Part shown: positions 4,701-43,900 of the stretch, in pieces
Numbering within the stretch: the stretch's first letter is position 1
Layout: each line of letters opens with the position of its first letter
DNA from: Bacteroidota bacterium
Lineage (GTDB): Bacteria > Bacteroidota > Bacteroidia > NS11-12g > UBA955
NCBI GenBank assembly: GCA_030833525.1
Contig: JAURGZ010000002.1
Span: forward strand, 3,927 to 67,926
Length of the DNA stretch: 64,000 bases
Reading direction: 5' to 3'
Notes under the pieces: model-generated
The model's input: only the letters and a program-made list of their open reading frames with translations
What the model was told of the DNA's origin: nothing
Databases searched by the model: none
Position numbers and translations under genes: made by a program

Positions 4701-4842
4701 CTGGACCCAATACACCGGTTTGGACCCCGAAATCGCGCGTGATTTTGAAAACCCCACTGACCGCAACATGAGCGGCAGCATTACCTACCTCACTCCTCCT
4801 CAAGAGAAGAGTATCAGTTTGGCCCTTAACCTGAGCTTCTAA
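1756..4842 (+). CDS. susC: SusC/RagA-family TonB-dependent outer membrane transporter
   Basis: Signal peptide; CarbopepD_reg-like segment (NGTIRGKISNDDGQALEGVSI); TonB box/plug (DDVVIVGYGRQSRRNVVGSISSV); NPEDIENIEILKDAAATSIYGSRGANGVILITTKR motif. Length is about 1028 aa and it is followed immediately by SusD. ATG at 1756 chosen over the upstream in-frame start at 1714. Confidence 0.9.
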   Translation: MNQYSSIRKALSLLFLSLLMLGSAWAQNGTIRGKISNDDGQALEGVSINWGTAQDAKSSADGSFILELPAGNYTLTASHSGYKSSSITVQLAAGETKSVNINLMPQADVIDDVVIVGYGRQSRRNVVGSISSVSGRELTEAPAPSFEAALQGKAAGVQVTVGSGMAGSASLIRIRGAASISAAGDPLYVIDGIPVTQDYFMNRANGSNWGGGFNNNPLASINPEDIENIEILKDAAATSIYGSRGANGVILITTKRARKQGLKFDFNTRWSVAMPTARPDMLSGPEWLQLYEEAWQNDGHVGKPDLSAVGLRLSWDQAQNINTDWIDQMIGVGFKQSYNFSTNYKKDHVAVKAILSYDDNGSYVIGNNYNRVSERVNVDWKPMKKMNVQLSHSLSQGTNTRVDAAWAGGLGSAMSTMLPIYPLEPLYDSASKSYITPVGLQTIRDLKNWRSIEVRTINNASLSYQINENLAVNASGSIDYMDYNEFLYEPAALIRYYNASYLQNGNAKWFPTWTLNKNYFATLQYDKNLGKGNSFGAMLGHEYQHSYSTSKYVENFDATGPIDQVVIPDSARLVFSRTPYEWAFLSYFGRLNYSYHNKLNFQVTARRDGSSRFGRNNRYGFFPAAAVGYILSEEDFIRNIKAIDFMKLRAGIGKSGNANFDNYARWGTITPSGNLQPYNGMPQMAPARLENPNLKWESTTNFDAGIETQLWKGRVSTELTYYNKNTTDVILQLSIPTSTGFGSFYDNVGAITNKGVEFSLKTVNIRSKNTQWTSNFNIARNYNEITSIGVYTEDAVSGGTNDTRVVVGQPVGTNFLVRFSHVDPQTGAPVYLDKDGNETYSWDPDNRVAVGNVLPKAFGSFNNVFNYKNFELSATVYFNIGGSIYESSVKRQLSLMTDWNMDRRVLDRWQQPGDNALYPKMTLNTFNHGSTTPWINTDLWLQDGSFARLRNLMFSYNMPKAWLTKTGFEAAKVTLVGINLLTWTQYTGLDPEIARDFENPTDRNMSGSITYLTPPQEKSISLALNLSF

Positions 4843-4844
4843 TC

Positions 4845-6212
4845 ATGAACACCAAAACATTTCTTTGGGCACTTAGCCTGAGTGCAGTGGCGCTGAGCAG
4901 CTGCGATAAGATGATCGAAACCCCTCCACCCAATGAGATTCTCATTGATGATGCGGTTCAAAACACCGATGACTTGCAAATGTTGCTCAACTCGAGCTAC
5001 AATGAACTCGCCAATACCTTCGGTGGGTTTGGACAAGTCCTGGCCGAGTTGCAAAGCGACAACCTAACCCTTCCCAACAACAATGATTACCGCGAGGTTT
5101 TCAACCACAACGTGTTGTTCTTCAACTCTACCACCGGGGCCTTCCACTCGATTTTGTACCGCACCATTTTCAGGGCCAACTTTGTCGAAAAATACCTGGA
5201 CCGTGCCGCCGATCTGACCGAAGCCGATCGCACGCGCATAGTGGGAGAAGTGGCCTTCATTCGCGCATACTGCCATTTTTGGGCTGTTCGCATGTTTGCC
5301 CATCCCTATGGGAAAACAGCCGACAATTCACATCCCGGAATCGCCATTGCCAACCGGGTCAGCACCGACCCCTATCCCCGAAGCACAGTAGCCGAGGCCT
5401 ATTCGGCTATTTTGGCTGATGCCAACACAGCCTTGACGAATTTGCCCAGCGACAATGGATACTACGCCGACAAGCAAGCCGCTCAAGCATTGCTGGCCCA
5501 GGTATATTTCCAAATGGGAGAATATTCCCAAGCCGCCGACATGGCCACACAGGTTATCAACAGTGGGAAGTATCAGTTGTCTGACACCGTAAACCTGTTC
5601 AATTCAAAAGCCGAGAGCGAGTATGTCTTTCGCATTGTGAGCACGGGTGTGAATGACAACCGCAGCGGTGCATTCAACGGCAACTACGCCCCTGGAACGC
5701 CTACCTGCCAAATGGATTTGGCCCTTTACAGCAACGTCAAAGATGCCAACGATAAGCGCTGCGCCATGTTGGTCGAAGCCAATGCAGGAGCCGCCAACAT
5801 GTTTGTCAAGAGTTCGGCTTTTGACGCTCAGTTCTTCGATGTTCCTTTGCTCTATTTGACGCAGATGCACCTGATTCGAGCCGAATCTTTGGCCCTGTCT
5901 GGTGGAGACCTCAGCGTCGCCATCGCCGATGCAAATGCCCTAATAAGCCGAGCCTATACCGACCCCAGTGGGGAGTTTTTGGCTGGCTCTTCAAGCCCAA
6001 GCGAAGTACTGTCCAAGGTTCGTAGCGAGCGCCGCATGGAATTGCTCTTCCAAGGCGACCGCATACACGAAGTAAAACGCTTGGGAGCGGTAGAAGGAGT
6101 CAACATGTTCATTCGCGGGCACCGATGGGATTGCGATGGCATGATCTTGCAATTCCCCATCGTCGAGCGCACCAGTATTTTTGAAATCAATCCAACAGGA
6201 GGATGCAAATAA
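4845..6212 (+). CDS. susD: SusD/RagB-family nutrient-binding outer membrane lipoprotein
   Basis: Lipoprotein signal with Cys (LSAVALSSCDK). About 455 aa, immediately downstream of SusC with a 2-nt gap. Aromatic/TPR-like SusD composition. Confidence 0.85.
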   Translation: MNTKTFLWALSLSAVALSSCDKMIETPPPNEILIDDAVQNTDDLQMLLNSSYNELANTFGGFGQVLAELQSDNLTLPNNNDYREVFNHNVLFFNSTTGAFHSILYRTIFRANFVEKYLDRAADLTEADRTRIVGEVAFIRAYCHFWAVRMFAHPYGKTADNSHPGIAIANRVSTDPYPRSTVAEAYSAILADANTALTNLPSDNGYYADKQAAQALLAQVYFQMGEYSQAADMATQVINSGKYQLSDTVNLFNSKAESEYVFRIVSTGVNDNRSGAFNGNYAPGTPTCQMDLALYSNVKDANDKRCAMLVEANAGAANMFVKSSAFDAQFFDVPLLYLTQMHLIRAESLALSGGDLSVAIADANALISRAYTDPSGEFLAGSSSPSEVLSKVRSERRMELLFQGDRIHEVKRLGAVEGVNMFIRGHRWDCDGMILQFPIVERTSIFEINPTGGCK

Positions 6213-6712
6213 TGAAACGAACTGTATTGAATAGCCTAGCCTTCATAGCTGTAGCCGCGGTGCTCAGCTTAACGGCCTGCAAGCCTGAAAAGAAGGAATT
6301 AGGGCCTCGCGTGAGTCAACTCGACGGCATAGCCGCCAATTGGATTTTGGACCGCGTGGCTCAGATTGATGTGAACGTAGAACTGGCTTTTGTAGAAAGC
6401 GATACCTTGTTGGACGTGAGTTCGGTCTACATCGCCGGTCAGCCCATGGAAATCAATTTTGACAAAGATGGCACCTATTCCACCACGGCCGGTTCGGGTT
6501 CCACCTTGTTTGGGCCTGCTACTGGAACCTGGAAATTCGACAACGATGAATATCCCTCGTTCTTGATTTTCAACGAAGGAACGGCAGATGAAACCCGCAT
6601 CAACATGCTTTCACCCATTCGTCCCCAAGACCCCAATTTGGCGATCAAAGTCAACAAATTCTGCAACGGTGAGCGAACGGTTTCTTATCACCTTTGGTAC
6701 AACCGCAAATAA
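6212..6712 (+). CDS. Hypothetical lipoprotein associated with the SusC/SusD locus
   Basis: Start overlaps the SusD stop (TAATG). Lipobox (LSLTACKPEKK). No recognisable catalytic motif. Confidence 0.5.
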   Translation: MKRTVLNSLAFIAVAAVLSLTACKPEKKELGPRVSQLDGIAANWILDRVAQIDVNVELAFVESDTLLDVSSVYIAGQPMEINFDKDGTYSTTAGSGSTLFGPATGTWKFDNDEYPSFLIFNEGTADETRINMLSPIRPQDPNLAIKVNKFCNGERTVSYHLWYNRK

Positions 6713-6719
6713 CGAACCC

Positions 6720-7580
6720 ATGAAACAACGCCTTATATTATTCGCAAGCGCCCTTTTGATGGGATCGGCTGCTCAGGCCCAGAAAGCGTGGATCACACCT
6801 TCTGACAACCCCAATCTGAAGGATTCTGTTACCCTTTGGGTCGACATTAAAAAATGCGATCGCCAGCAATTGGCAGGATCTACCGAAGACTTGTACATGT
6901 GGACTTGGAAGCCCATTGAGCATCCGCAGGGGCACCCCTTGCACAACGGCACATGGAATGCCTCTAACGAAGCGCTGCGCTGGACCTCAGCTGGAAACGA
7001 CGTTTATTTCTACCGCATGGTTCCAACCGAGTTTTACGGAGTCAGCCCCGCTCAGTTGTACGCCAATGACATTCATTTGTTGCTAAAAAAGAAAGACGGT
7101 ACCGGCGATTCCAACGGCGAAGCGAAAACCGAAGACTTGCTCATCACCTTGGACCCCCCCGTTACGGGCCCTCAGAAGTTGTCTACCTTCCCCAAGACCA
7201 AGAAGAAAGACACCATGAGCACCTCGGCGAGTGATGTTTTCACCTTGAAGTACGACCGCAACTTGGAGGAAAAGACCGCCCTGCAAACGGCCGATGACTT
7301 TTATGTTTATGTGCAAGCCAAAGGAGACAATGGATTGTACTACAAATACAAGAATATCAGCATCACCAAGGTGGGCAATGAGCCCAGCTTGGCCATGAGC
7401 GATATGGGCAATGGCATGTTCCATTTCACCATCGTACCCAGCACTTTCATGGCCGCTGATTTGCCGTCGGGTGTCAAACTGGTCGGTTTGAAATTCCAAG
7501 TGGTTCGCAAGACGATCAAGAATTCTGACGATACGGTTGACGGTACCTACGAATACATTTTCAATCCTTACTGCGAATAG
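6720..7580 (+). CDS. Hypothetical secreted protein in the SusC/SusD locus (possible SusE/F-like surface protein)
   Basis: ATG at 6720 follows the upstream stop at 6712. Signal peptide (LLMGSAAQAQ). Lys/Thr-rich middle region. Ends just before a terminator. Confidence 0.45.
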   Translation: MKQRLILFASALLMGSAAQAQKAWITPSDNPNLKDSVTLWVDIKKCDRQQLAGSTEDLYMWTWKPIEHPQGHPLHNGTWNASNEALRWTSAGNDVYFYRMVPTEFYGVSPAQLYANDIHLLLKKKDGTGDSNGEAKTEDLLITLDPPVTGPQKLSTFPKTKKKDTMSTSASDVFTLKYDRNLEEKTALQTADDFYVYVQAKGDNGLYYKYKNISITKVGNEPSLAMSDMGNGMFHFTIVPSTFMAADLPSGVKLVGLKFQVVRKTIKNSDDTVDGTYEYIFNPYCE

Positions 7581-18444: not shown

Positions 18445-20562
18445 TTAACGCATCAAAAAGACGTTGCCTTTGATGGTGTTGTGGCGCTTCAAATCACCTG
18501 TGATGATGTCATAGCGAAACAGGTATTGATAGAAGCCTTCCATGCAAGGTTCACCATTCGCATTGCCATCCCACTCGAAAGACCCGTTGTCGTTGCTATC
18601 AAACACCTTCTCTCCCCAGCGGTTGTATATGATGAAATACGTGGGGCGCACACCGCGACCGGTGATGGTAAAGGTTTCGTTGCGACCGTCGCCGTTGGGG
18701 GTAAAGGCCGTAGGAATGAACGCATCGCACAGGCCCGATTTGATCGTGACTTGAACCCCGTCTGAAGCCGAACCGCATGGATTGGTCAAGGTCGCTTGGA
18801 AATAGCCGCTGGTGCTGACGTAAATCACCGAATCGGTGCTGCCGTTGTTCCATTGAACCTTCGCGCCGGGCCAACTGGCCTTCAATTGCAACATGGCACC
18901 TTGGCAAATCAAGGTATCTTCGGGCAACTGCACCTTGGGCGAGGTCCCTTCGTAAATCTTAATGGTATCGCGCCATTTGCAGCCGTTGTTGTTCACTTCG
19001 GCCCAATAAAAACCTCCTTTGTTGATGCTGCGAGTGGCTCCTGTAGTAGCATTGTCCCAGGTTACCGTTCCTGTGGCGCCTACGTACAGGGTCATGGATT
19101 TTCCATCGCACACGCTGCTATCCTTACCCAATGAGAATTTGGGAAGGGGAGAAATCGTGATCGACTGCTCGCTCGAGTCGGGGCAAAATGAGTCCTTAAC
19201 CACGTATTTGATTTTTTGCAATCCCGCCACGGTGGGAGAAAAATCAAATCCATTGAAAGAATTGCCGTAGAACTTGCCGTTGGTAGTTTCTGCGGGACTC
19301 AGTGTAATCGCAGGATCCCCCAAGCAAAGAGTGGCGGGAAGACCTGAGAATGAGGGATCGACGTTTCGCTTCACAAAGACCAATACTGTATCAATCGAAC
19401 TGCATCCTTCTGGACTTGAAGCCGCGTGAATGACCGAATAAACCCCGGTGGCGGCGTAGGAATGCGTCACCTTTTTCGCCGTCGAGGTTGTGCCGTCTCC
19501 CAAATTCCAACTGAAAGAACTCAAGCCTGGAAATACGTTATCAAATACAAAACTGTTCGACTTGAAACATTGGATCGAATCGTTGATGGAAATGCCCGAT
19601 GAAGGATCGGGAATCACCCGCACATACATGGAGGTAGTATCGGTACAACCGGTGCGTTTGTTGTCGTAAAGAGTCTCACTTTTATAGCGAATGCGGTACT
19701 TGCCTGGGGCCGGATACACCCTTGTGGGAGTGGGAATGGTCGCACTATCGCCTGGGCCGAAATACCAAGTTCTGATGTATGCCGTTTTGGGCACCTTGGC
19801 CAATTGGGTTTGGTCGTCAAACTTAAACTGATGTCCCACAAAACACTGGGCAGTATCGTTGTTTTGCTCAATGGGAATGGAAACCGGTCTGGGTATGATG
19901 AAAACCGCTTTGGTTGAGGTAAAGTTATCGGTGCAACCCAATGCAGGAGCGGCTAACAGGGTCACCAAGAAGCTACCGCCTTTGGTGTAGACGTGATTGA
20001 CATTTTTACCCGTATCGGTCATACCGTCTTGAAACAACCAAGTGTATTTGATACCGCTGTAAGTGGCCGTGGTTTTGTTGGTAAACTGAACAAAGTTGGT
20101 GTTCTGGCAACTATCGGTATAGGTAAAATCAAAATCCAGAACCAAATTCTGAGTCTTGAAGGTAATGGTCAGATAAGTACTGGTCAGGTAATCGGGAGTA
20201 GCCCCACCGTTGTGTTCATACAGGCGAAACTCGTAGGAAGTGTTCTTCTTCAAGTTGGTGATGTTGACACTGTTGGTAATGTTGTCATACACCACATAAC
20301 TGTTGGTACCCATGTTGGTACCGCTTCCAAAGGCGGCTACCGCTGTGTATTTCGTTCCATCTGAGGGGGTATTGGCTGAACCGCTACCCTCTATCAAAAG
20401 GCCCATTCTCCATGTACCATTTCCCGAAGTCCAAGACAGTTGGGCCGAGGTACAGGTCAAAGTTCCCACCTTGCCGTTGCTGGAAGCAACGGTTGGTTCT
20501 TGTGCCTTTACCGCTGCTGTGGCAAAGAGTGTAAACCAAAGGACTGAAAGGATTTTTTTCAT
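18445..20562 (-). CDS. PKD-repeat protein with T9SS type-B C-terminal sorting domain (gliding-motility-associated CTD)
   Basis: Signal peptide (MKKILSVLWFTLFATAAVKAQ). Repeated GDG/PKD-like modules. C-terminus FTPNGDGRNETF...IYNRWGEKVF...GNVFLMR matches the type-B CTD. ATG at 20562 preferred over the TTG at 20574. Confidence 0.75.
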   Translation of the reverse strand: MKKILSVLWFTLFATAAVKAQEPTVASSNGKVGTLTCTSAQLSWTSGNGTWRMGLLIEGSGSANTPSDGTKYTAVAAFGSGTNMGTNSYVVYDNITNSVNITNLKKNTSYEFRLYEHNGGATPDYLTSTYLTITFKTQNLVLDFDFTYTDSCQNTNFVQFTNKTTATYSGIKYTWLFQDGMTDTGKNVNHVYTKGGSFLVTLLAAPALGCTDNFTSTKAVFIIPRPVSIPIEQNNDTAQCFVGHQFKFDDQTQLAKVPKTAYIRTWYFGPGDSATIPTPTRVYPAPGKYRIRYKSETLYDNKRTGCTDTTSMYVRVIPDPSSGISINDSIQCFKSNSFVFDNVFPGLSSFSWNLGDGTTSTAKKVTHSYAATGVYSVIHAASSPEGCSSIDTVLVFVKRNVDPSFSGLPATLCLGDPAITLSPAETTNGKFYGNSFNGFDFSPTVAGLQKIKYVVKDSFCPDSSEQSITISPLPKFSLGKDSSVCDGKSMTLYVGATGTVTWDNATTGATRSINKGGFYWAEVNNNGCKWRDTIKIYEGTSPKVQLPEDTLICQGAMLQLKASWPGAKVQWNNGSTDSVIYVSTSGYFQATLTNPCGSASDGVQVTIKSGLCDAFIPTAFTPNGDGRNETFTITGRGVRPTYFIIYNRWGEKVFDSNDNGSFEWDGNANGEPCMEGFYQYLFRYDIITGDLKRHNTIKGNVFLMR

Positions 20563-20572
20563 TGGGCTTCGC

Positions 20573-20580
20573 AAAGGTAC
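20573..20580 (-). promoter_or_regulatory. -7 promoter box TACCTTTG, 10 nt upstream of the type-B CTD gene's ATG
   Basis: Minus strand reads GTACCTTTGCGaagcccaATG. Confidence 0.4.
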
Positions 20581-20705
20581 TCAATTAGACACAAATCCTT
20601 CTCCCCTCGTGGCCTATACCCTAGACATTTGACACGAGACAATCTGCGGTGGTATGGATAACTTGGTTTGCGTGAACACCGAGCAGCCCTCAATTTTGAT
20701 ACTGT

Positions 20706-23294: not shown

Positions 23295-24611
23295 TTATCG
23301 AACTTCTCGAATCCAGACTTGCGGCACTAAACCCTCGAAGTAGTACATGCTCTTGTTGGCGTCTTTCTCAGAGCCAAAGTGCTTCACAAATACATAGAAG
23401 CTCTTGTTCTTTGGATCGTACATTTTGTAAGCAATGACATCTTTCTCGTACAAATCTTTGATTTGTTTATTGGCCTTGGCTTCGCTGCTGTGCAAGCCCA
23501 CGACCAAATAGAATCCAGGAGCTGAAGCTACTTTTTCCAAATCAGGCAATTGAATGCCGCTGGTATCGTATCCCAAACCGAAGTTTTCCAAATCTTCCAG
23601 ACTGCGAATCACCGCTTCTTTGCGTACAGCAGCCCCGCCAATTCCCTGATCTTCGTCTAAAGAACCAGAACCTGAACCGTCGCCACTGCCATCGCCGCGA
23701 ACACCGCCGCCCAAAGCCGCAAAGCCCAAGTTCAATTGAAACTCATGCGAGGGGCCCAAGGCTAAGCGAGAAGCCCCACTGGGCGTATTGTACGAATAGC
23801 TAAACTGCATATCGTCTTGGGGTTTGAAGCCCAGATTCGCGCCAATTTGGCCCAAGTTGTTGGCCCCTGCGCCAAACCAGAACATATCTTGGTACCACAA
23901 GCTCACGTTACCTTGAAACAGGTAATAGCTCCAATCGTACGCGTATACATGCAAAGCGGGCTTCAACAACATTTCTGAACCCACCTCAGCTTGGAAACCC
24001 ACCAAGAAATTAGCCTGGGATTGCATATCGTAAGCGGCCGTATAGTTGTAATATGAATAATCAAAGGTGGGCTTAGGCAAACGCGACAAAGAAGCACCTG
24101 CAAACCAATTATCTCCCTTGGCATACATAGAGGCGCGCAGGTCAGCGCGAGTCACAGCCGGTGAAAAGATCAAGGCCTTGATGATAGGGTCATTGTCGTG
24201 CACATAAATCGCCTTAGAGGGGTCAAAGCTCTGGCGCAAGGCACCCACGCTGACTCCCAAAGAAAGGTCGGCAGCATTGCCCAACCCGATGGTATAGGCA
24301 TAGGTGGCATAGGTGTTGTGTGTCTCGGCAAAGCCGTAACGTTCACGCATGTAATAAATGCCAAAGCCTGTATTCTTAGAAGCCATGGGCATGTTGACAT
24401 TCATGACACTGTGCTGGGGGCTTCCGGGCACGTCGGAGAACATTTTGTTGTGAAACAGACTCAAGCCGCCCATTTCCATGTTTCCAACCGCTGCTGGAAT
24501 GATCGAAGCGTGATCCATGTAAAACTGATCCAAGCGAACTCCCATTTGGGCGTTCAAGGGAAGGCCAAGCGCCAAACCCATCAAAGCAATTGTGATTTTT
24601 TTCATGTTCAT
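23295..24611 (-). CDS. PorP/SprF-family T9SS outer membrane protein with a C-terminal SPOR-like peptidoglycan-binding domain
   Basis: N-terminal PorP/SprF-like beta-barrel region (MKKITIALMGLALGLPLNAQMGVRLDQFYMD...). Then a Gly/Ser/Asp linker (GGGVRGDGSGDGSGSGS) and a C-terminal ~75-aa region (GFYLVVGLHSSEAKANKQIKDLYEKDVIAYKMYDPKNKSFYVFVKHFGSEKDANK) resembling SPOR. Confidence 0.65.
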   Translation of the reverse strand: MNMKKITIALMGLALGLPLNAQMGVRLDQFYMDHASIIPAAVGNMEMGGLSLFHNKMFSDVPGSPQHSVMNVNMPMASKNTGFGIYYMRERYGFAETHNTYATYAYTIGLGNAADLSLGVSVGALRQSFDPSKAIYVHDNDPIIKALIFSPAVTRADLRASMYAKGDNWFAGASLSRLPKPTFDYSYYNYTAAYDMQSQANFLVGFQAEVGSEMLLKPALHVYAYDWSYYLFQGNVSLWYQDMFWFGAGANNLGQIGANLGFKPQDDMQFSYSYNTPSGASRLALGPSHEFQLNLGFAALGGGVRGDGSGDGSGSGSLDEDQGIGGAAVRKEAVIRSLEDLENFGLGYDTSGIQLPDLEKVASAPGFYLVVGLHSSEAKANKQIKDLYEKDVIAYKMYDPKNKSFYVFVKHFGSEKDANKSMYYFEGLVPQVWIREVR

Positions 24612-24616
24612 GGGTA

Positions 24617-27600
24617 TTAGCGAATGACTTGGATATAACCGCGGAACTGTTCTCCCGTAAATCGGTTTTTCATGTAGTAGAAATAAATACCATCAGGCAA
24701 AGTCTCACCGTTCATATCAACGGCAGACCAATCGTTTTGGTAATTGGAACTCTGGTAAATCAACTTGCCCTGACGATCGTGAATGTCAATGTCGTACAAG
24801 AACAAGTCTGCCAATTCGATCAAATCCCAAGCGTCGTTCTGACCGTCATTATTGGGCGTAATCAAATTCGGGATTTTCAAGATGGGAGGATCAATGACGG
24901 TCACCAATACAGAGTCGATGTCTGCGCATCCGTTGGAGTCCAAACTATTCAAGTAATACATGGTGGTAGACAAGGGTCTAGCCGTAACCACTGCTTGAGT
25001 GGAGTCATCCAAAGTATTTCCAGGAGACCAAGTAAAGTTCGTTGCCCCACTTGACCACAAAGTGGCGTATTTGCCGCGGTAAATGGTCGTGTCGCTGTAA
25101 GCATTCACTTGTGCGGGCGGGAAAGCCAAAATTTGAACCGAATCTTCGGTGTAACATACAGCACCGACCGAGTAAGCCCTCACTTTGTACCAGCCTTTGT
25201 TGTAGAAACTGCGCACACGCGCCACACTGCTGTCTTTGAGCCAACTAATGCTGTCTCCTCCAATGACCGTCACTTCCAAACTATCGCCTTTGCACAGCGG
25301 TAGCGATCCGTTGTACGAGAAGCTCAAGTCGGGCTTCTGAATGAAGCTCAAGCTTTGGCGAGCGGTATCTGAGCATCCGGCGTCGCTCGTCAACACATAG
25401 GTCACGTCAATAGGACCTACGTTATCGATGTACACCACGGGGCTATCGAGAGACGAAACGGTTCCATTTCCAAAATCCCACAACTTGTAGATGATGGGAT
25501 CTACAGAAGTGCTAGCTGTGTCGTAAAAGTAAATGCTATCGGGAACGCAGATGCCTTCAGTATAGAATTGGGCCACAGGCGAATTTGCCACGGTGTAGGT
25601 TCTGAACATGCTGTCGGCGCAGCCGTGTATGTTTTGAGCAAACAGACGCAGGGTGTAAGTACCGGCAGCCGGGAAAATGTGATCGGTAGAAGTGGCCGGC
25701 AATTCGGTGGTTCCATCGCCAAAATCCCAAGAGGTAAAGCTCATGGTGTCATCAGCATCAAACAATTCTTCTTTGACAAAATAGAAATGGTTCTCATTGA
25801 AACACTGGGTTGAATCGTTAGGCGTCACCAAGGGATCTAAAAAGAAACTCACCTTAGGCAGGTAATATACCCGAATTTGCTCTACCGCTGAGTCTTTGCA
25901 GCCCTCGTTTGAGGTCGCAATCAAGGTCACATCGTGGGCACCAGGGGTATTGAAACCCTTCTTCACCATGGTATCAATGTACTGGGGAGGTGTTTGGTCA
26001 ATGACCCAGTTGTAGATGATTTGGTTGTCGGGAATGGTGGTTGATTTTTTGCGGCGCATGACCGTAGTATCGCCCAAACAAACCTGCTTGGTTGTAAAAG
26101 AAGGCTGAGGTTTTGGATGCACTTTGATCCAATAAGAAGCTGTGTCTTCGCAACCGTCTGTCGTAATGACCTTCAAGGTCGCCTTGTAGGTACCGACTGC
26201 GGCATATTGGTGCGTGGTATTGGGGTAAGTTGAATCGTTGGCAGAGAAATCACCGAAGTTCCACACGTAAATATCGGCTACGGTGTTCTTCAAGTTTGTC
26301 TGATCGTTCGTATTGGTTACCTCGTCCAAGCAGGTGTGGCTGAGGGTAAATTTGGCATCGGGAATGGCATTCACCGTATGGTAGTACTCGGTTGAATCGA
26401 CGCAGCCAAAATCAGAAGTTACCTTCAATTTGATGATGTACACACCGGGTGACGGGTATTTGTAAGCGATGTTTTTATTCAGGTTGTTGGTGATGTTACC
26501 CGTTAGCTTGGGGCTTCCATCTCCACGATCCCATTCCCATGTCTTCACTTTGTCTGGCGCGGGATCTTGAGTGCCGTTGGAATAGAAAGACGTTTTACCA
26601 AAGCAAATGGGATCGCCTCCCGGAGGGAAGTTGATCGCCGGCGCGGGCAAGGAATGCACCAAGTAATCCAAACTATCAATGGCTTTGCAACCCAAGGCAG
26701 TGGTGCGAGTCAAATAAATCTTGTAGTTGCCACCGGCGGCATAAATGTGATTGATGGTTTGAGCAGTCGAAGTGGTCAAATCACCCAAATCCCATTTGCG
26801 CGAGAAAATACTTTCGGGCGAAGGGGGCGTATACGTATCGATGAACAAGGAGGTATCGCCTACGCAAACTCCATTGGTATAGATGTTTTTGTTGAACATC
26901 ACCGTGGGCAATACACCCACGCGAAGGTTGTAGCTAAAGGTATCTTCATCGGTGCTATTGCCTACAATCAAGGTGACGGTATAGTTGCCATAGGCAGCAT
27001 ACTTGCGAAAAATCTTAGCTGGAATACCGGTATTGGTATAAGTCAAGGTATTGCCATCGCCGAAGCTCCATTTCCAATATGTAATGGGAGAAGCGGTACT
27101 CTTCGACAAATCGGTAAAGAAAAATGTATCGCGCTCGCAACGACCCTTGGCCAATTCAAACTTGGAAAACGCATTGGTACTTCCCAATACGTTGACGCCG
27201 TTCTTGACGTTGGCCAGAACAAAAGTCATTTGGGTTTGAAAGGTATTGGTCGCAATTTGGCCTTTTCGATTGGCAGATCCCATGCCGCCGAGATCCACCC
27301 AAGAACCGGCAGGAGCATGACCTAAAATGCGTAAAAAGTTTGCCTCGTATACTTGGTCGTCAGCGGTCACAGAATCATATGAGGCCGTCAACTCAAAATT
27401 GTTTGACGTCCCTGTGGGCAACAATCCCAATTCCCAATAGTGGACCTTTGAAATGTTGCGAATGCCCGTGGGCAATGCCCCTCCCGTTGATGGACCTCCA
27501 CTTTTCACTTCCATGCGGTAGTAAACCAAGCCACTCACCGTCTTATTGAAATTGAGCTGCGTATAGCGGTAGTCTTGGTTGACTCCAATGGGAAAATCCA

Positions 27601-28105
27601 AACTGGTAGCACCGCTGGTCAAACCGATCCAAAGGGCTCCTTTGACAAAACTATTCTTGCTGCCACCCAAGCGCTGAGCACCCGCCATGGTGCGAAAGGC
27701 TTTAGAACCCGTGGTGCTAATGTGGCCCAAGGTCAATTCCAAGGTGTCTTTCACATCGAGGGTATCGCCCGAAACCGTCAAGGTTACACCCGAACCATTC
27801 ATGTGCAAGCTGCGCACTTGAACATTGCTCGAACCGCTGCTGCTCACGGCAAACTCGAGCGACTTGCTCAGGGTAATGGTTTCAGAATAAACTCCGTTGG
27901 AAATGTTAATGACATCGCCAGAAGATGCGATGGCCATGGCTGCATTGATGGTCTTTTTGGGGCCGGTAGTTCCACTGACAAAAGTGGCCGAGGTCCCATC
28001 ATAAGAATCGCTTCCAGAGGTGGAAACATACCATGATGCCCCGAATACCGAGGAGGCTCCCACCCAGCTCAAAAACAAGGCGAGAATTCTAAGTTTTATA
28101 TTCAT
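24617..28105 (-). CDS. Large cell-surface adhesin-like protein with tandem PKD domains and T9SS type-B C-terminal sorting domain
   Basis: 1162 aa. Signal peptide. N-terminal beta-helix-like region (SGDVINISNGVYSETITL). Repeated WxFGDGxT PKD motifs. C-terminus ITPNNDGQNDAW...IYQSSNYQNDWS...GYIQVIR matches the type-B CTD. Immediately upstream of PorP/SprF. Confidence 0.75.
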   Translation of the reverse strand: MNIKLRILALFLSWVGASSVFGASWYVSTSGSDSYDGTSATFVSGTTGPKKTINAAMAIASSGDVINISNGVYSETITLSKSLEFAVSSSGSSNVQVRSLHMNGSGVTLTVSGDTLDVKDTLELTLGHISTTGSKAFRTMAGAQRLGGSKNSFVKGALWIGLTSGATSLDFPIGVNQDYRYTQLNFNKTVSGLVYYRMEVKSGGPSTGGALPTGIRNISKVHYWELGLLPTGTSNNFELTASYDSVTADDQVYEANFLRILGHAPAGSWVDLGGMGSANRKGQIATNTFQTQMTFVLANVKNGVNVLGSTNAFSKFELAKGRCERDTFFFTDLSKSTASPITYWKWSFGDGNTLTYTNTGIPAKIFRKYAAYGNYTVTLIVGNSTDEDTFSYNLRVGVLPTVMFNKNIYTNGVCVGDTSLFIDTYTPPSPESIFSRKWDLGDLTTSTAQTINHIYAAGGNYKIYLTRTTALGCKAIDSLDYLVHSLPAPAINFPPGGDPICFGKTSFYSNGTQDPAPDKVKTWEWDRGDGSPKLTGNITNNLNKNIAYKYPSPGVYIIKLKVTSDFGCVDSTEYYHTVNAIPDAKFTLSHTCLDEVTNTNDQTNLKNTVADIYVWNFGDFSANDSTYPNTTHQYAAVGTYKATLKVITTDGCEDTASYWIKVHPKPQPSFTTKQVCLGDTTVMRRKKSTTIPDNQIIYNWVIDQTPPQYIDTMVKKGFNTPGAHDVTLIATSNEGCKDSAVEQIRVYYLPKVSFFLDPLVTPNDSTQCFNENHFYFVKEELFDADDTMSFTSWDFGDGTTELPATSTDHIFPAAGTYTLRLFAQNIHGCADSMFRTYTVANSPVAQFYTEGICVPDSIYFYDTASTSVDPIIYKLWDFGNGTVSSLDSPVVYIDNVGPIDVTYVLTSDAGCSDTARQSLSFIQKPDLSFSYNGSLPLCKGDSLEVTVIGGDSISWLKDSSVARVRSFYNKGWYKVRAYSVGAVCYTEDSVQILAFPPAQVNAYSDTTIYRGKYATLWSSGATNFTWSPGNTLDDSTQAVVTARPLSTTMYYLNSLDSNGCADIDSVLVTVIDPPILKIPNLITPNNDGQNDAWDLIELADLFLYDIDIHDRQGKLIYQSSNYQNDWSAVDMNGETLPDGIYFYYMKNRFTGEQFRGYIQVIR

Positions 28106-28116
28106 TGGAATGGATT

Positions 28117-28199
28117 CAATTAAAAACGCTGCGTTTTGCTAACGAATTTACTGCCATAAAGACAATTAAAAACAGGTTTGCGTTGCAAACGAGCAAAAC
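28117..28199 (-). promoter_or_regulatory. Repeat-rich upstream region of the adhesin gene: two direct repeats, a 6-3-6 palindrome and an 8-bp inverted repeat
   Basis: Direct repeat CAATTAAAAAC at 28117-28127 and 28163-28173 (46-bp spacing), each followed by G(T)TTTGC. Palindrome GTTTGC-gtt-GCAAAC at 28176-28190. Inverted repeat GTTTTGCT (28133-28140) / AGCAAAAC (28192-28199). All within 12-95 nt of the start codon at 28105. Confidence 0.4.
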
Positions 28200-28230
28200 A
28201 TGATGGTTTATTGACCGCTGGGGCCTAATC

Positions 28231-28608
28231 TTAGAAAGGCAAATCGTCGTCAGCAGAGTCGCTGGCTGAAACATCACCCGCCACGGGCGCTTCTGAAGCG
28301 AAAGGATTGGCCATAGGAGCAGGGGCTGATGCAGGAGAAGCCGCACCGGCAGCTTGCACATTCCACGCTTTCACATCGGTGTACCAACGGCCGTTATATT
28401 CTCGGCTTTCCACATCGATGCTCACAGTCAAATCCTGACCCTCTTGAATGGCGAATTTGGCAATTTTATCGCCCCACAAATTGAAGCACACTTTTTTAGG
28501 GTAGGTTCCGGGAACTTCCAAGATGTACTCTTGCTTTTCCCACACTCCGTTTTTCCCTTGCCCCGTTTGCTTGGGCAGTAATTGCACGACTTTACCAGTA
28601 ATTTCCAT
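28231..28608 (-). CDS. DUF3127-family protein (small, OB-fold-like, acidic C-terminal tail)
   Basis: MEITGKVVQLLPKQTG...KQEYILEV...KKVCFNLWGDKI...VESREYNGRWYTDVKAWNV matches my recollection of DUF3127. Ala/Pro/Asp-rich tail. Confidence 0.7.
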   Translation of the reverse strand: MEITGKVVQLLPKQTGQGKNGVWEKQEYILEVPGTYPKKVCFNLWGDKIAKFAIQEGQDLTVSIDVESREYNGRWYTDVKAWNVQAAGAASPASAPAPMANPFASEAPVAGDVSASDSADDDLPF

Positions 28609-31204: not shown

Positions 31205-32473
31205 CTATTTTGAACGCATGGCATCAACGGGATTTAAGCGGGCTGCTGAACGAGCCGGCAAAAAGCCCGATAAAATTCCCACGCCAATCGAAACCAAGAG
31301 CCCCAACAGGGCATCAGAAGCATCCAACCCTATCTCCACCGAGTTGCCCAATGATTGGGCTGCGATGGCTTGTATTCCCATCAGAGTAAGCCCTACAAAC
31401 CCTAGTCCCACTGCACCTCCGGCCGTACACAGCCAGATCGCTTCCAGTAAAAATTGTCGACGAATGAAGGAAGATGGAGCCCCCAAAGCCTTCTGAATTC
31501 CAATTTCCTGGGTTCGTTCTTTTACGCTCACAAACAAGATGTTGGCTACGCCAAAGCATCCGACTAACATCGCAAATGCTCCGATGATCACACCCACTTT
31601 TTGTATTTGAGCGAACAATTGAGTGACGGCTTCGGTTATCATGCTCATGCGGTTAACCGCATAACTGGCCTCTTGGGCAGGACGCTCGTGGCGAATTTGA
31701 CGCATGGTCATTTCAACTTCAGTTTGAAGGTCATCTAACGAAACTCCTTCAGCTGCTTTGATCATAATTTGAGCGTCATCGTTGTTTTTGAAACTAGACA
31801 AACCCAAACCCGTTTTGAGCGGAAGCAAGAGGCTGTTGTCTGCCGAATTATTCAAAATACTAGCTCCTTCTTTTTCGAACACCCCTATGATATGAACGAC
31901 TCCATTCAATATGCGAATGGGTTGACCAATGGGATCTTTGTCTCCAAAAAGGGCTTCAGCTACATCTGCCCCTACAACCGCCACAGCCCTGCCGGCGCGG
32001 CTTTCGGCCGGAGAAAAATAACGCCCTTTGCTCAAGTTCACCTTTTGAATTTCGGCGTAAGCGTGGTCGACGCAGCGAATGGAAACACCATCTACCCGGG
32101 ATTCAGCCGTTTGGACCCCTTTGTTCAAGGAAAAAGAATAGGCAATCGCCGAGGCCCGGTTGGCTGGCAATCGATCGCGCAAAAACTGAGCTTCAGTAGG
32201 AGTAACAATGGGTCGAGACAAATATTTCCACCAGGGGTAATTGCCCCCCATTCCATCCCAGGGCCATTTTTGAACAAACAACACTTCGGTCCCATATTGG
32301 CGAAACTGGTTGTTGATGCTGCGCTCCATGGAATGCACTAGGGCATAGACCGCAATGATGCAATAAATACCAATGGTAATGCCCAGGACCGACAGAAAAC
32401 TGCGCAATTTGTTCTGCCGAATGGCCCGAAACGAAAAGCGAAAGGATTCCAGCCAGGAACTGCCCAGGTGCAT
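31205..32473 (-). CDS. ABC transporter permease, FtsX/MacB/LolE family (no cognate ATPase nearby)
   Basis: N-terminal TM, large periplasmic domain and three C-terminal TMs (FtsX-like permease fold). 422 aa. Confidence 0.75.
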   Translation of the reverse strand: MHLGSSWLESFRFSFRAIRQNKLRSFLSVLGITIGIYCIIAVYALVHSMERSINNQFRQYGTEVLFVQKWPWDGMGGNYPWWKYLSRPIVTPTEAQFLRDRLPANRASAIAYSFSLNKGVQTAESRVDGVSIRCVDHAYAEIQKVNLSKGRYFSPAESRAGRAVAVVGADVAEALFGDKDPIGQPIRILNGVVHIIGVFEKEGASILNNSADNSLLLPLKTGLGLSSFKNNDDAQIMIKAAEGVSLDDLQTEVEMTMRQIRHERPAQEASYAVNRMSMITEAVTQLFAQIQKVGVIIGAFAMLVGCFGVANILFVSVKERTQEIGIQKALGAPSSFIRRQFLLEAIWLCTAGGAVGLGFVGLTLMGIQAIAAQSLGNSVEIGLDASDALLGLLVSIGVGILSGFLPARSAARLNPVDAMRSK

Positions 32474-39579: not shown

Positions 39580-42048
39580 TTAGGGCTTGATCAACACAGT
39601 ACCCTGCCCTTCAATGGACAACCAGTACAAGCCCGGTTTCAAAGCTGAAGCAGAAATGCTCATTTGTTTGGAGAGGGCAACCCCTTCTTGGCAAATTTGA
39701 CCTTTGGCGTCAAACAAAGTCCAGGTCCGGGCGCGGTTGTTGCCGAATGTCACGTTCCAAATTTCAGAACTGGGATTGGGATAAACCTCAAAAGCCAAAG
39801 GCGTCATGTCGGTGCGGCTCGCCAACAAATCAGCTAAGGTAACCGTACAAACACCCGATGATTCCAAGAATCGCGAATCAAAATCAACCCAAGCGATGTT
39901 GTCTATTTCTTGATTGAGACTCAGTTTTTGGGTCAAATCGACTTGATATTCCACGAAACCGCCAGCCGACGCACTGTTGCTTTCCAACGAAGACAAATTG
40001 GCTTCAGGAAACTCTACCACCAAAATGCGCCCTTGAACAATGCTCAAATTAGCTTTCAAGGGATAGTGATTCGTCACCAACAATCGCTTCAGGGGCAGAT
40101 TGGCGTCTAGGGTATCGATCATGACCGCGCGTTTCACAAAACCGCTGGAGGTATTCAGGAAGTCTACGCGGTAATTCCATGAAGTAAGTCGGTAATCAAT
40201 CGTTTCCCCGCCTTGGCTCTTTTTGCTCACAGATGGAGGCAATTGGCCACCCTCTGCAGGCCCCATGAGCAAGGTATCTTGGTTATCAGCCGCCCATTTG
40301 TCGTCTTTGGTAAAGAAACTGCCCACGTGAATCTGCACAGATTTGGGCGATCCTGTTTCGGCATCGGGGGCAATTTTCAGTTCTGCCTCATACACCATTT
40401 TAGCAAAAGGAGCCAGATTGACCAGCGTAAAGACGGCTTGACTACCATCGTAGTTGCTAGGACTGGGATTGCTTTGGAACTGGGTCAAAGCGGCATCGTG
40501 CTGAACATGCAAGGTAGGACCTGTCAAGGTAGACGCACCGTGGTTTTGAGCCACAATCAGGAAACGTGCCGACTCCCCTGCCTGATTCGTTTGAGGACTC
40601 AAAGGCACCAAATGCACTTCCAAGTCTTGGATGCTGGGCTGCTGGTAATAGCCCAAGCTGGTAGAAGCATACATGCCCTGACGAATGCGGGAAGTTTGGT
40701 TGTTGGAACAAACCGAATATAAATGGCGACCTGGCTGCAAACTGATTTGATAATCGCCAGCCGGCAAGGCTACCGAGAAATGCCCTTGGTCATCAGTAAT
40801 GGCAAAAAAGATGGAGCCCGTCGCTTTGTTTTCCAAGCGAATGGGACAAGTGGGAATGCCGACTTCACTGCTTTCTTTGCTGCAATTGGAGTTGGCATCG
40901 AAATACACATCTCCCACCAAATTACCTGCTTCGTTTTCCAAATTAGAGAAATAGCGAATGCCAGTATTTTGTTCTGTAAAATCGCCCCATATGAAAGCAT
41001 CATCGCCGCGTTGACCCAATTGAAAGGTCCCCGAAATGCGATTTCCTGTTAAAGCCAAGGCACCTGATTCATAGCGAATCAAAGAAGATCCGTTACCGTC
41101 TTTTTCGAACTGGCCGCCAATCATCAAATAGTCGGGCGCACCGGCAATGGTTCGGGGTTCAGCGATGCTGAAGGAATCGAATCCCAATGCATCTGACCAC
41201 CCTGTACCGATAAACTTACGAATCTCGTAATCACTACTGGCACTCTGGCCCAAAGCGTAAATCTCTGTGCCGACTGTCGCAAAATCAAGAACTTCACCGC
41301 TGAAGGGCGAACCGATCCCGCCCCATTCACCGTTGGAAGCCGTGTAATAAGCGATGTTCCCGGTAAAAGTGCTGGCAAAATATTGAAAATCACCGGCGAT
41401 GTACAAGCGAGAGCCCAAAACCAATAGGCTCTTGATGGTTCCATCGGTGCCTTGTTCTGAGCTTGAACTTCCCAAATAGGACCAACTCGTCCCGTCAAAG
41501 GCAGCGATGTTTTGAACGTCTACACCGTCTACCTGATTGGTAAAACGACCGGCCACAATCAACTTATTGTCGTAAACGGTCATGGCCATGATGCCATAAT
41601 TGGTCGATGCGATCCCATTCACTTGAAGCCACTGGTTGTCGTCCCAACGGTACAAATGGCTAATGGCCGTGGTGGCATCTTGCGCTGCCCCCGCAATGTA
41701 AGCGGCGGCATATAAGGTATCGTGGTACAAAACCACGCTGTGGAAATTGTAACTGCCTTGGGTGCCTTCTACCAATGGTGGGGTCGTCAGACCTGGGAAA
41801 TAGGTCCAGTGCACACCGTCCCAAGAGGCGGCGGTAAAGTCATTGTTATCAGGGGTAGACGTTTCATCGAAGAGCACGACATACTCGTTGCCCGCCGCGT
41901 ACGATGCTACAACCTTACCGGGTACACCATTCCCCAGCGGTTGTAGCACCTGCGCATTGGCCCCCATTGTCCAAACGCAAGCAAGCAGGAAAAATCCGAG
42001 CTTACTCATGCCTAGCAAGATAGGGTTGATGAAACACAATTTTCTCAT
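39580..42048 (-). CDS. Secreted repeat protein with T9SS type-A C-terminal sorting domain (Por secretion tail)
   Basis: Signal peptide (FFLLACVWTMGANAQ). Repeated beta-propeller-like segments (YAAAYIAG, IVAGRF, YIAGDF, MIGGQF). C-terminus YPNPSSEIWNVTF...LFDAKGQ...LKPGLYWLSIEGQ matches the type-A CTD. ATG at 42048 overlaps the upstream TGA. Confidence 0.7.
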   Translation of the reverse strand: MRKLCFINPILLGMSKLGFFLLACVWTMGANAQVLQPLGNGVPGKVVASYAAGNEYVVLFDETSTPDNNDFTAASWDGVHWTYFPGLTTPPLVEGTQGSYNFHSVVLYHDTLYAAAYIAGAAQDATTAISHLYRWDDNQWLQVNGIASTNYGIMAMTVYDNKLIVAGRFTNQVDGVDVQNIAAFDGTSWSYLGSSSSEQGTDGTIKSLLVLGSRLYIAGDFQYFASTFTGNIAYYTASNGEWGGIGSPFSGEVLDFATVGTEIYALGQSASSDYEIRKFIGTGWSDALGFDSFSIAEPRTIAGAPDYLMIGGQFEKDGNGSSLIRYESGALALTGNRISGTFQLGQRGDDAFIWGDFTEQNTGIRYFSNLENEAGNLVGDVYFDANSNCSKESSEVGIPTCPIRLENKATGSIFFAITDDQGHFSVALPAGDYQISLQPGRHLYSVCSNNQTSRIRQGMYASTSLGYYQQPSIQDLEVHLVPLSPQTNQAGESARFLIVAQNHGASTLTGPTLHVQHDAALTQFQSNPSPSNYDGSQAVFTLVNLAPFAKMVYEAELKIAPDAETGSPKSVQIHVGSFFTKDDKWAADNQDTLLMGPAEGGQLPPSVSKKSQGGETIDYRLTSWNYRVDFLNTSSGFVKRAVMIDTLDANLPLKRLLVTNHYPLKANLSIVQGRILVVEFPEANLSSLESNSASAGGFVEYQVDLTQKLSLNQEIDNIAWVDFDSRFLESSGVCTVTLADLLASRTDMTPLAFEVYPNPSSEIWNVTFGNNRARTWTLFDAKGQICQEGVALSKQMSISASALKPGLYWLSIEGQGTVLIKP

Positions 42049-43298
42049 GGGCGGCCTCCTTTCAAAGACCAAATCAACTGGGTACTCAAACCCGCAGACC
42101 ACGCATGGGCCTTGACGGCAGAACCCGCTTGATACAAAGGCGTCATAGCGCCTTGCATATTTCCAAGAATGGACCAACTCAAACCCGGGCGCAATTCACG
42201 CTCCCAACCGGCGGCCACTCGAGCCGACAAGAACCAGGTTTGGAATGCATCGTCAGACCAATCTTCCAAAGTCAAATAATGGTAATTCAAGGTTTTTCCA
42301 CCCTGCCCCGAAATGAGGTTGGCTTGCAGTTGAGCATCCATGACCCAGTTTCCATGTCGACCCGCTTCAGGACGGAAAGACAACCCTATAGGAATGCTCA
42401 AGAAATTCAAGGTGCTTTGGCCTTGGTATTGCACCCTTGGCCCCGGACTGAGGTAACCGAAAATGGGATAATTCCCAAAGGCATCGGCAACCGTTCCAAC
42501 CGCTGAACTGGCGGGCATGCTATCTTGAAAATCAAAAGACTGGCCACGGCGATTTTGCGCCCAAGCCAAACCCGCGTGCAAGCGTAAATGTTCTTGAATA
42601 TCGCGTTGAACGGAAAAAGAAAGGCGAGCGCTTTGCAAACTAAATTCGCCTTGCTGCACGCGATCAAAATAATTTTTATGTATGTAGGAAGAACGCACAG
42701 GAACGGCCGAATACAGAATACCTGTTTGGTTTTGGTCGAACCCGACCTCGAGATACCAGGGACCTTTATCAGATCGCTGCGAATCTCGAGGTGCGGATAC
42801 CACCAATTGATTCTGTAAAAACGGTTCCAAGCGAAACACTCGAATGGATAAGGCCTTGGAATAAGGTTCGAAAACAGGAGGCAAAAGCCCCTGGTAAACC
42901 TCACCTACCCCTGAGGTAGATGCCAAGGAAGAAGAAGGAAAAGTTGAAGGAATAGGTGCGCGGTACAAACCCACATTAGCCTCATGCTCAGCACTACCCG
43001 CAGAAACCGATTGTTCTGGGGAAGGCGCTATCACCGGGCTCTGGGATTCAACCAATGCAGGGCCTTGGGCACCTGATTCGCTCACTGCGCTCGAGGAAAC
43101 GGAGTGGCTAGCCACCCAAACCCCCAAACTCACCACGGCGATGCTCGCAGCAGACACCCATGCCCACAAGGGGAAGCGGCGCTTACGAGCATCCATTTTC
43201 GCCTCAATGGCCTCCCACATTTCGGGAGCAGGCGTAAGTTCAACTCCTTCGAGTTGTTGCTTCAGCCATTCATCGATATGCGAATTGTCGCGGTTCAT
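42045..43298 (-). CDS. Putative anti-sigma factor: short cytoplasmic N-terminus, one TM helix, Ser/Pro-rich linker, ~250-aa beta-rich C-terminal domain
   Basis: ATGA-coupled directly downstream of the ECF sigma factor. TM segment WAWVSAASIAVVSLGVWVA about 45 aa from the N-terminus. The C-terminal domain has alternating hydrophobic patterning. The anti-sigma role is assigned from context, not from a recognised motif. Confidence 0.5.
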   Translation of the reverse strand: MNRDNSHIDEWLKQQLEGVELTPAPEMWEAIEAKMDARKRRFPLWAWVSAASIAVVSLGVWVASHSVSSSAVSESGAQGPALVESQSPVIAPSPEQSVSAGSAEHEANVGLYRAPIPSTFPSSSLASTSGVGEVYQGLLPPVFEPYSKALSIRVFRLEPFLQNQLVVSAPRDSQRSDKGPWYLEVGFDQNQTGILYSAVPVRSSYIHKNYFDRVQQGEFSLQSARLSFSVQRDIQEHLRLHAGLAWAQNRRGQSFDFQDSMPASSAVGTVADAFGNYPIFGYLSPGPRVQYQGQSTLNFLSIPIGLSFRPEAGRHGNWVMDAQLQANLISGQGGKTLNYHYLTLEDWSDDAFQTWFLSARVAAGWERELRPGLSWSILGNMQGAMTPLYQAGSAVKAHAWSAGLSTQLIWSLKGGRP

Positions 43299-43900
43299 TT
43301 CTTTCTTTTCTTCAGTTCTTCTTTCAGCATTTTCCGCCCGCGGCTCAGCAAGGTTTTGGCGTTCCCTTCGCTGACCCCCATCAGCTCAGCAATTTCTCGG
43401 TGAGGCAATTGGTCAATGGCGTAGAGGTTCAATACCGTTGCGTAGGTCGGTGGCAAGGCGTGCAAGCAAGCCAACACCTCAGAGAGTTCCAAAACCGGCA
43501 GCGGCTCAGAAGTCTCTTCTTCTGACAACTGATCCGACTCTGGCAACTCTTGAAACTGTGGGCCGCTTCGCTCTTTGCGGTAACGACTTAGCGCCAAGTT
43601 GATGAACACCCGGGTCATCCATCCTTCCAATTGCTGGGGATTTTTTAGGGCAGAAATGCTGTCAAAGACCTTGATGAAACCGTCTTGCAGCAAATCTTGC
43701 GCGTCATCCGTATTCCCGGAGTAGCGCAAGCAATGTCCAAACATTTTGGGGGCGAAGCGGTCGTACAAAGCCTTTTGGAATTGACGATCGCCTTTGATAC
43801 ACCCAGCTATGAGGACATCGTTGCTGATCAAGGGTTTCGGATTAATGACGCAGAAAGTAGTAAAGGTTACAAAAAAATATAGCGAACGCGAAGAAAACAT
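43295..43900 (-). CDS. RNA polymerase ECF-type sigma-70 factor
   Basis: Region 2 (FQKALYDRFAPKMFGHCLRYSGNTDDAQDLLQDGFIKVF) and region 4 HTH (ATVLNLYAIDQLPHREIAELMGVSEGNAKTLLSRGRKMLKEEL). An alternative TTG start at 43831 would give a typical 178-aa ECF protein. Confidence 0.8.
   Translation of the reverse strand: MFSSRSLYFFVTFTTFCVINPKPLISNDVLIAGCIKGDRQFQKALYDRFAPKMFGHCLRYSGNTDDAQDLLQDGFIKVFDSISALKNPQQLEGWMTRVFINLALSRYRKERSGPQFQELPESDQLSEEETSEPLPVLELSEVLACLHALPPTYATVLNLYAIDQLPHREIAELMGVSEGNAKTLLSRGRKMLKEELKKRKK

Follow-up and report, generated by a model that had tools for sequence, protein, structure and literature searches.

Promoters recognized by extracytoplasmic function (ECF) sigma factors carry a conserved AAC in the -35 element and a group-specific -10 element such as CGTC, with spacers of 14-17 bp between them; the sigma-V promoter of Bacillus subtilis, for instance, is GCAAAC/CGTC (PMC5758882). 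In Flavobacterium psychrophilum, an ECF-type motif with a CGT box, SM6, precedes gldN, porU, a homologue of PG0189 and an ECF/anti-sigma pair; its general form is xxAAC-N16-CGT, as in GTAAC-N16-CGTA and ACAAC-N16-CGTT (PMC9723704). In Porphyromonas gingivalis, the ECF factor SigP controls type IX secretion system (T9SS) genes (PMC4800418). The sigma-A promoter of Bacteroidota has TTTG at -33 and TAnnTTTG at -7 (PMC7366714). Here, we analysed 64,000 nucleotides of contig JAURGZ010000002.1 from a Bacteroidota bacterium (assembly GCA_030833525.1), hereafter the window. We focused on the 125-bp spacer upstream of a T9SS cargo gene, a putative adhesin gene that is followed by a PorP/SprF-family gene. 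The conserved core of this spacer is, in our assessment, somewhat more probably than otherwise a bipartite promoter of the ECF sigma-factor type that serves the two-gene cassette. The genes of the locus are as follows.

24617-28105, minus strand: type-B T9SS cargo gene, 1162 amino acids, with PKD repeats and a CHU_C C-terminal domain (Pfam PKD_4, 4e-56; CHU_C, 1.3e-19)
23295-24611, minus strand: PorP/SprF-family gene, 5 bp 3' of the cargo gene (Pfam PF11751, 1.7e-33)
28231-28608, minus strand: DUF3127 gene, 125 amino acids, with a DDDLPF tail (Pfam PF11325, 1.7e-33)

On the minus strand the order is thus DUF3127, the spacer (28106-28230, 39% G+C), the PKD/CHU_C cargo gene and PorP/SprF. The ATG of the cargo gene lies at 28105, the position at which a first-pass annotation, made from the DNA letters, had placed the start of a minus-strand open reading frame (ORF) of 1162 amino acids. 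The T9SS cargo identity proposed there is borne out by the PKD and CHU_C domains and by the PorP/SprF gene next to it, the combination of a CHU_C domain and an adjoining PorP/SprF gene being that of a type-B cargo protein with its cognate partner. Because both genes that flank the spacer are on the minus strand, the spacer was read as its reverse complement. The window sequence is also present in the metagenome-assembled genome GCA_049431285.1, labelled Bacteroidia bacterium, and in other assemblies.

Related loci, designated here by L-codes, were collected with a one-genome-per-species scan that used the DUF3127 protein and yielded 80 loci. The DUF3127-to-adhesin order is kept in eight of these (L004, L006, L007, L008, L009, L013, L014 and L016), and later look-ups added the syntenic loci L084, L089, L090, L095, L096, L100, L101 and L102. 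When relatives were sought with the adhesin N-terminus, the metagenome scan returned one locus and the protein search one match; look-ups of DUF3127 homologues (70-81% identity over 67-98% of the query) led only to lineages already sampled. Alignment of the orthologous spacers brought out a conserved dyad, whose parts in the window, together with a conserved block next to it, are listed below. They overlap a palindrome and a direct repeat that are described further on.

28182-28187, minus strand: predicted -35 element TGCAAC of the conserved dyad; its AAC core (28184-28182) forms the palindrome's 3-nt loop
28165-28181, minus strand: 17-nt spacer GCAAACCTGTTTTTAAT, invariant in length and not in sequence, which includes the palindrome's 3' arm and the greater part of the upstream repeat copy
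28160-28164, minus strand: predicted -10 element TGTCT; YGTCT(A/T) is conserved in all syntenic lineages
28199-28215, minus strand: conserved block GTCAATAAACCATCATG, 5' of the -35 element, with similar GTCA(A)TAAA..TCATG in L004, L006, L007, L008, L100 and L102

The dyad is conserved, fixed in its spacing and specific to this gene order. On the sense strand, nnnAAC-N17-YGTCT(A/T) is common to all aligned syntenic loci except L014, which has CAC where the others have AAC. The window reads TGCAAC-GCAAACCTGTTTTTAAT-TGTCT, L004 GCCAAC...TGTCT, L007 GGAAAC...CGTCTAA, L009 GCCAAC...CGTCTAC and L013 GTAAAC...TGTCTAT, and the dyad is present as well in the syntenic loci L089, L090, L095, L096, L100, L101 and L102. 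In its strict form it was found in 10 of 11 syntenic loci, compared with none of the 71 loci in which DUF3127 has another downstream neighbour. Exactly 17 nt separate AAC from YGTCT in every motif-bearing lineage, whereas the sequence of the gap is divergent. To avoid a motif chosen post hoc, we also performed an unbiased enumeration of all dyads made up of a 3-mer, a gap of 5-25 nt and a 4-mer in the spacers of eight lineage groups. The top dyad was AAC-N18-GTCT, which occurred in seven of the eight groups, against a maximum of 3-4 in shuffled spacers.

This dyad has AAC in its -35 element, a short GTC-type -10 element and a gap that is fixed in length and free in sequence, all of which are features of ECF promoters. 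Since both the form of the dyad and the T9SS setting are those of known ECF promoters, a promoter of this type is plausible at this locus. From these resemblances we infer that the dyad is read by a sigma factor, where transcription starts and which genes might form a regulon. The 125-bp spacer would then act as promoter and leader of the cassette made up of the type-B cargo and PorP/SprF genes. Along the sense strand, the -35 element TGCAAC (28187-28182) would be followed by the 17-nt spacer and by the -10 element TGTCT (28164-28160), and transcription would start near 28152, a position predicted because the T of the CGT box in SM6 lies near -10. The resulting leader would be about 47 nt long. 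A putative alternative sigma factor would switch on the adhesin gene and probably also the CHU_C gene at 18445-20574. In some relatives, and likewise at the second cargo gene, a sigma-A -7 box just 3' of the dyad could provide an additional promoter; at the adhesin gene of the window this box is degenerate (TAAATTCG).

28149-28155, minus strand: predicted transcription start zone (about 28152), placed by analogy to F. psychrophilum SM6 (supplementary file 3 of PMC9723704)
28106-28152, minus strand: predicted 5' leader of about 47 nt, derived from the predicted start

The distance from GTCT to the ATG is 59 nt in the window, compared with 25-38 nt in other lineages, and the leader in the window's clade is 20-30 nt longer than in the others. 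The first-pass annotation had proposed that this large surface protein may be under dedicated transcriptional control. In part we agree, as transcription is probably of a kind other than plain housekeeping transcription; control by an alternative sigma factor is plausible, not proven.

A second candidate site was obtained with a weight matrix trained on the orthologous sites only, with the window sequence excluded. Its best match on either strand of the 64-kb window is at 20614-20587 (17.6 bits). The window has one other CHU_C gene, at 18445-20574; the site is located immediately upstream of it, within a 131-bp spacer, and on the correct strand.

20587-20614, minus strand: second bipartite motif GGCCACG-N15-GTGTCTAA, 5' of the other CHU_C gene; top weight-matrix match (17.6 bits)

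A score of at least 17.6 bits was reached in 7.5% of shuffled windows; other Bacteroidota loci (672 kb x2) reached it once. In the relative L103 (FtsX protein 89% identical), both blocks, ATAGGCCACG and GGTGTCTA, are preserved and the intervening 15 nt have diverged. Five nucleotides after the motif, the window has a canonical -7 box, TACCTTTG (20579-20572), which corresponds to TACATTTG in L103, with a 1-nt indel before the box. In L104, a distant orthologue of the second cargo gene, we found only a relaxed ACAACG-N16-TGTCA, which is far from the ATG and not significant. The listed TTG start of the second cargo gene (20574) overlaps TACCTTTG, so that the ATG at 20562 is probably the real start.

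The -7 boxes next to these dyads allow a different explanation, in which a sigma-A promoter built on the -7 box (TAAATTCG here, TAAATTTG or TACCTTTG elsewhere) drives transcription and the dyad is an activator or repressor site that spans -20 to -45 and replaces the -33 element. We consider this unlikely. The box concerned is the following.

28143-28150, minus strand: degenerate sigma-A -7 box TAAATTCG, one mismatch to TAnnTTTG, 9 nt after GTCT

A canonical or near-canonical TAnnTTTG does occur 7-9 nt after GTCT in the window, at the second cargo gene and in L006, L007, L008, L089, L095, L100 and L102, and in these seven related loci TAAATTTG is strictly conserved 7 nt after GTCT. Moreover, genes of the window generally have TAnnTTTG near the ATG, and AACG...CGTC is loosely self-complementary (ACG/CGT), which would suit a site of this kind. 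However, L009, L013, L014 and L016 keep the dyad and have no TAnnTTTG between it and the ATG. The distance from GTCT to the -7 box varies (7, 8, 9 or 13-14 nt), which speaks against a phased activator site. The box of the window is mismatched within the conserved TTTG. The claim of the first-pass annotation that a canonical TAnnTTTG is absent holds for 28106-28230, where there is no exact match. A sigma-70-type promoter scan of the spacer found nothing. The dyad, for its part, fits the ECF form (AAC, a gap of about 16-17 nt and a CGTC-like -10) without an extra assumption.

Several observations weigh against an ECF-type promoter. The adhesin site of the window scores 8.1 bits, compared with 18-25 bits in the orthologues, and at two conserved flanking positions it carries T in place of G. 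The second cargo gene has CAC in its -35 element, not the hallmark AAC. The simple pattern AAC-N16-18-YGTCT is not enriched in the window (7 matches against about 12 expected), and the argument therefore rests on conservation; all other matches in the window are inside called genes or apparently coding stretches. No ECF sigma gene was found within 4 kb on either side of any syntenic locus, and the one ECF gene of the window (43295-43900) is preceded by TGTAAC-N15-CGTCA, which differs in both spacing and -10 element. In four further loci, L085, L086, L091 and L097 (the last at 2588-7384), the order is an outer-membrane beta-barrel gene, the adhesin gene, PorP/SprF and DUF3127. The region upstream of the adhesin gene was recovered only from L097 among these four, and there it lacks the dyad and carries a canonical sigma-A promoter, TTTG-N20-TAAGTTTG. 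Finally, the retention of TAnnTTTG 7-8 nt after GTCT in several lineages means that the dyad could be an activator site for sigma-A.

The ECF gene of the window is part of a minus-strand cluster (39580-43900) together with an anti-sigma-like gene (42045-43298) and a T9SS cargo gene (39580-42177), the C-terminal domain of which is of a different type. The ATG of the ECF ORF at 43900 is probably too far upstream, and the TTG at 43831 fits the N-terminus of an ECF factor. The sequence TGTAAC-N15-CGTCA (43871-43846) falls within this spurious extension of the ORF and is presumed to be autoregulatory.

The spacer had originally attracted attention as unusually structured, with an 11-bp direct repeat (CAATTAAAAAC, 28117-28127 and 28163-28173), the palindrome GTTTGC-gtt-GCAAAC (28176-28190) and an 8-bp inverted repeat (GTTTTGCT/AGCAAAAC, 28133-28140 and 28192-28199). 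All three are present at these positions. The features concerned, including a longer duplication around the direct repeat, are listed here.

28163-28192, minus strand: duplication copy 1, TCGTTTGCAACGCAAACCTGTTTTTAATTG, which covers the -35 element and the 17-nt spacer (local self-alignment)
28117-28145, minus strand: duplication copy 2, TCGTTAGCAAAACGCAGCGTTTTTAATTG, inside the predicted leader and with no GTCT after it (local self-alignment)
28176-28190, no strand assigned: 6-3-6 palindrome GTTTGC-gtt-GCAAAC; on the sense strand a weak hairpin and then CTGTTTTTAATTG, terminator-like by scan
28192-28199, no strand assigned: 8-bp inverted-repeat arm AGCAAAAC, with its partner GTTTTGCT at 28133-28140; expected by chance in 16% of shuffles
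28123-28137, minus strand: second weak hairpin AAAACG-CAG-CGTTTT, inside duplication copy 2 (-1.4 to -2.0 kcal/mol)

To assess chance expectation, we shuffled the 125-bp spacer 5000 times with its dinucleotide composition preserved. Exact direct repeats of 11 bp or more appeared in 18 of the shuffles (0.4%), inverted repeats of 8 bp or more in 803 (16%) and perfect 6-bp hairpins with a loop of 3-8 nt in 1173 (23%). Among the noted motifs the direct repeat alone exceeds chance. The region also folds no better than shuffled sequence, with a folding z-score of 0.06 for the whole spacer as RNA and of -0.37 for the predicted leader. Folding energy thus gives no support to the description as unusually structured, and the palindrome and the inverted repeat cannot be told from chance.

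The direct repeat forms the core of an imperfect duplication that extends over about 30 bp, with indels, and in which 28192-28163 aligns with 28145-28117 (TCGTTTGC--AACGCAAACCTGTTTTTAATTG against TCGTTAGCAAAACGC--AGC-GTTTTTAATTG). Its local self-alignment score is 28, compared with 13.6 +/- 2.1 under the null, and the highest score among 150 shuffles was 21. The first two bases of TGTCT are also the final two of the upstream repeat copy. To judge from the orthologous spacers, the duplication is seen only in the window lineage: L004 and L084 have only TTTTTGATTGAA at the position of copy 2, with self-alignments at background, and the closest relatives L004, L084 and L101 (adhesin N-terminus 83% identical) do not retain the repeat units as repeats. 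Copy 2 was considered as a second promoter and rejected, as AAC-N17 lands on ATCCA, 3 nt from the ATG, with no room for a start. Within the leader it might act as a decoy or a modulator; the simplest reading is a local duplication or conversion.

The first-pass annotation had likened the repeats to a two-operator regulatory site. On this model, two operator units 46 bp apart, each consisting of CAATTAAAAAC and a GTTTTGC-type element, would together with a palindromic operator bind a dedicated dimeric regulator. The direct repeat is statistically real and the spacer contains four GCAAA(A)C/GTTT(T)GC elements, which are points in favour of such a site. Nevertheless, we regard it as very improbable. 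Neither the repeat units nor the palindrome arms are conserved in L004, L084 or L101, and the palindrome and the inverted repeat do not exceed chance. There is no recurrence either: CAATTAAAAAC, TTTTAATTG, GTTTGCNNNGCAAAC and GCAAAC show no enrichment within the window, where GCAAAC occurs 55 times against 61 expected, the palindrome with up to two mismatches 7 times against 6 expected, and CAATTAAAAAC in no further exact copy and not above expectation. The proposed search for these motifs elsewhere, which covered the window and 680 kb of related loci, gave no excess and no occurrence before other T9SS cargo genes, nor any copy at comparable positions in the related loci. In addition, a period of 46 bp is a non-integer number of helical turns. 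The 9-mer ACGCAAACC was examined as a shared element, as it has exactly two copies in the window (20665-20673 and 28175-28183), both on the sense strand and each upstream of a CHU_C cargo gene. It was rejected, since the orthologous spacer of L103 does not conserve it, and the sharing is probably a coincidence. Taken together, the comparison with relatives suggests that the repeats which drew attention are largely incidental and not a conserved signal; the promoter candidate surfaced only when the orthologous spacers were compared.

A further alternative operates at the RNA level. The palindrome with its T-run would be the intrinsic terminator of DUF3127, and the second hairpin with its T-run a second terminator or a leader attenuator, so that the direct repeat would represent two terminator-like modules. 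A scan flags GTTTGCAACGCAAAC and then CTGTTTTTAA as terminator-like. The spacers of L006, L007, L008, L013 and L016 have their strongest hairpin (-9.7 to -15.2 kcal/mol) at the same place, with different arms; it holds the AAC of the -35 element in its loop, and the changes in the arms look compensatory. The strongest hairpin of L014 (-12.6 kcal/mol) is slightly shifted and encloses no AAC. Furthermore, a hairpin of -9 kcal/mol or lower follows DUF3127 in other contexts in 35% of loci, compared with 17% of shuffles, and DUF3127 has its own promoter, with a canonical -7 box TACTTTTG (28621-28614) 5 nt before its ATG. In contrast, typical terminators are much more stable than the hairpins of the window, which have -2.7 to -3.8 kcal/mol for the palindrome (a 6-bp stem with three G-C pairs) and -1.4 to -2.0 kcal/mol for the second. 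L004 and L084, the nearest relatives, have a weak hairpin or none, as do L009, L089 and L095, and the overall folding of the spacer does not surpass that of shuffled sequence. Rfam yielded no hit at the gathering threshold in the window and none at E<=1 in 27950-28400. For the window, a terminator or attenuator is thus rather improbable as the explanation. Among the relatives, the differing arms would suit an RNA-level element such as a DUF3127 terminator better than a protein operator, and the hairpins of L006, L007, L008, L013 and L016 may be terminators that overlap the promoter. A terminator role, which is possible, is compatible with an ECF-type promoter at the same place.

With regard to DUF3127 itself, the C-terminal DDDLPF forms an acidic tail like that of SSB. 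With TACTTTTG 5 nt from the ATG, the mRNA is expected to be leaderless or nearly so, and the gene at 31205-32473, with a box TATCTTTG 4 nt before its ATG, resembles it in this respect.

If the adhesin and the second cargo gene are both served by ECF-type promoters, a wider reading comes into view, to which we give only tentative credence: in a clade of uncultured Bacteroidia, apparently from fresh water, a dedicated ECF-type sigma factor may run a regulon of T9SS cargo genes of type B (CHU_C). The promoters of such a regulon would take the form [A/C]AC-N17-YGTCT, often with a sigma-A promoter just 3'. How Bacteroidota choose which T9SS surface proteins to display is poorly understood, and the known ECF control, by SigP in P. 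gingivalis and through SM6 in F. psychrophilum, mainly concerns the secretion machinery. The regulon, if true, would mean that an alternative sigma factor controls individual surface adhesins and not the machinery that secretes them. An ECF-type promoter common to the two type-B cargo genes of the window would provide a concrete, testable cis-element, with which the regulon and the sigma factor behind it could be sought in uncultured freshwater Bacteroidia.

Compared with described promoters, the proposed element resembles those of sigma-V, -W, -M and -X in B. subtilis (PMC5758882), which are likewise bipartite, with AAC in the -35 element, GTC or CGTC in the -10 element and a gap of about 16-17 nt. 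It differs from them in that its -10 element is YGTCT(W), in which the first base is T as often as C. The 17 nt between AAC and YGTC are at the long end of the ECF range of 14-17, and the second cargo gene has CAC. The same genome uses the Bacteroidota sigma-A promoter (PMC7366714), for example at DUF3127 (TACTTTTG) and at the second cargo gene (TACCTTTG), whereas the adhesin spacer has neither an exact -7 box nor a suitably spaced TTTG.

Among T9SS-related systems, PorXY-SigP of P. gingivalis (PMC4800418) is similar in that an ECF sigma factor is dedicated to T9SS-related genes; the motif proposed for SigP, C(T)AAA(G/C/T)A(T)A(C)T(A/G)A, has an unrelated form, and its targets are por machinery genes. 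The gene pair of the window is comparable to the SprB/SprF pairs of Flavobacterium johnsoniae, in which a gene for a CHU_C (type-B) protein is immediately followed by a PorP/SprF-family gene. The window protein is much smaller than SprB and has another N-terminal domain, and its function as an adhesin is assumed. In F. psychrophilum, the operon of the SprB adhesin has sigma-54 and SM5 promoters instead (PMC9723704). SM6 from the same species (PMC9723704) is likewise an xxAAC/CGT-type promoter located before T9SS-related genes in Bacteroidota, and both SM6 and the window motif coexist with sigma-A TAnnTTTG promoters at some genes. SM6 has the form AAC-N16-CGT and drives gldN, porU and further T9SS genes, its targets being machinery components, whereas the window motif has the form AAC-N17-YGTC and precedes type-B cargo genes, one of them paired with PorP/SprF.

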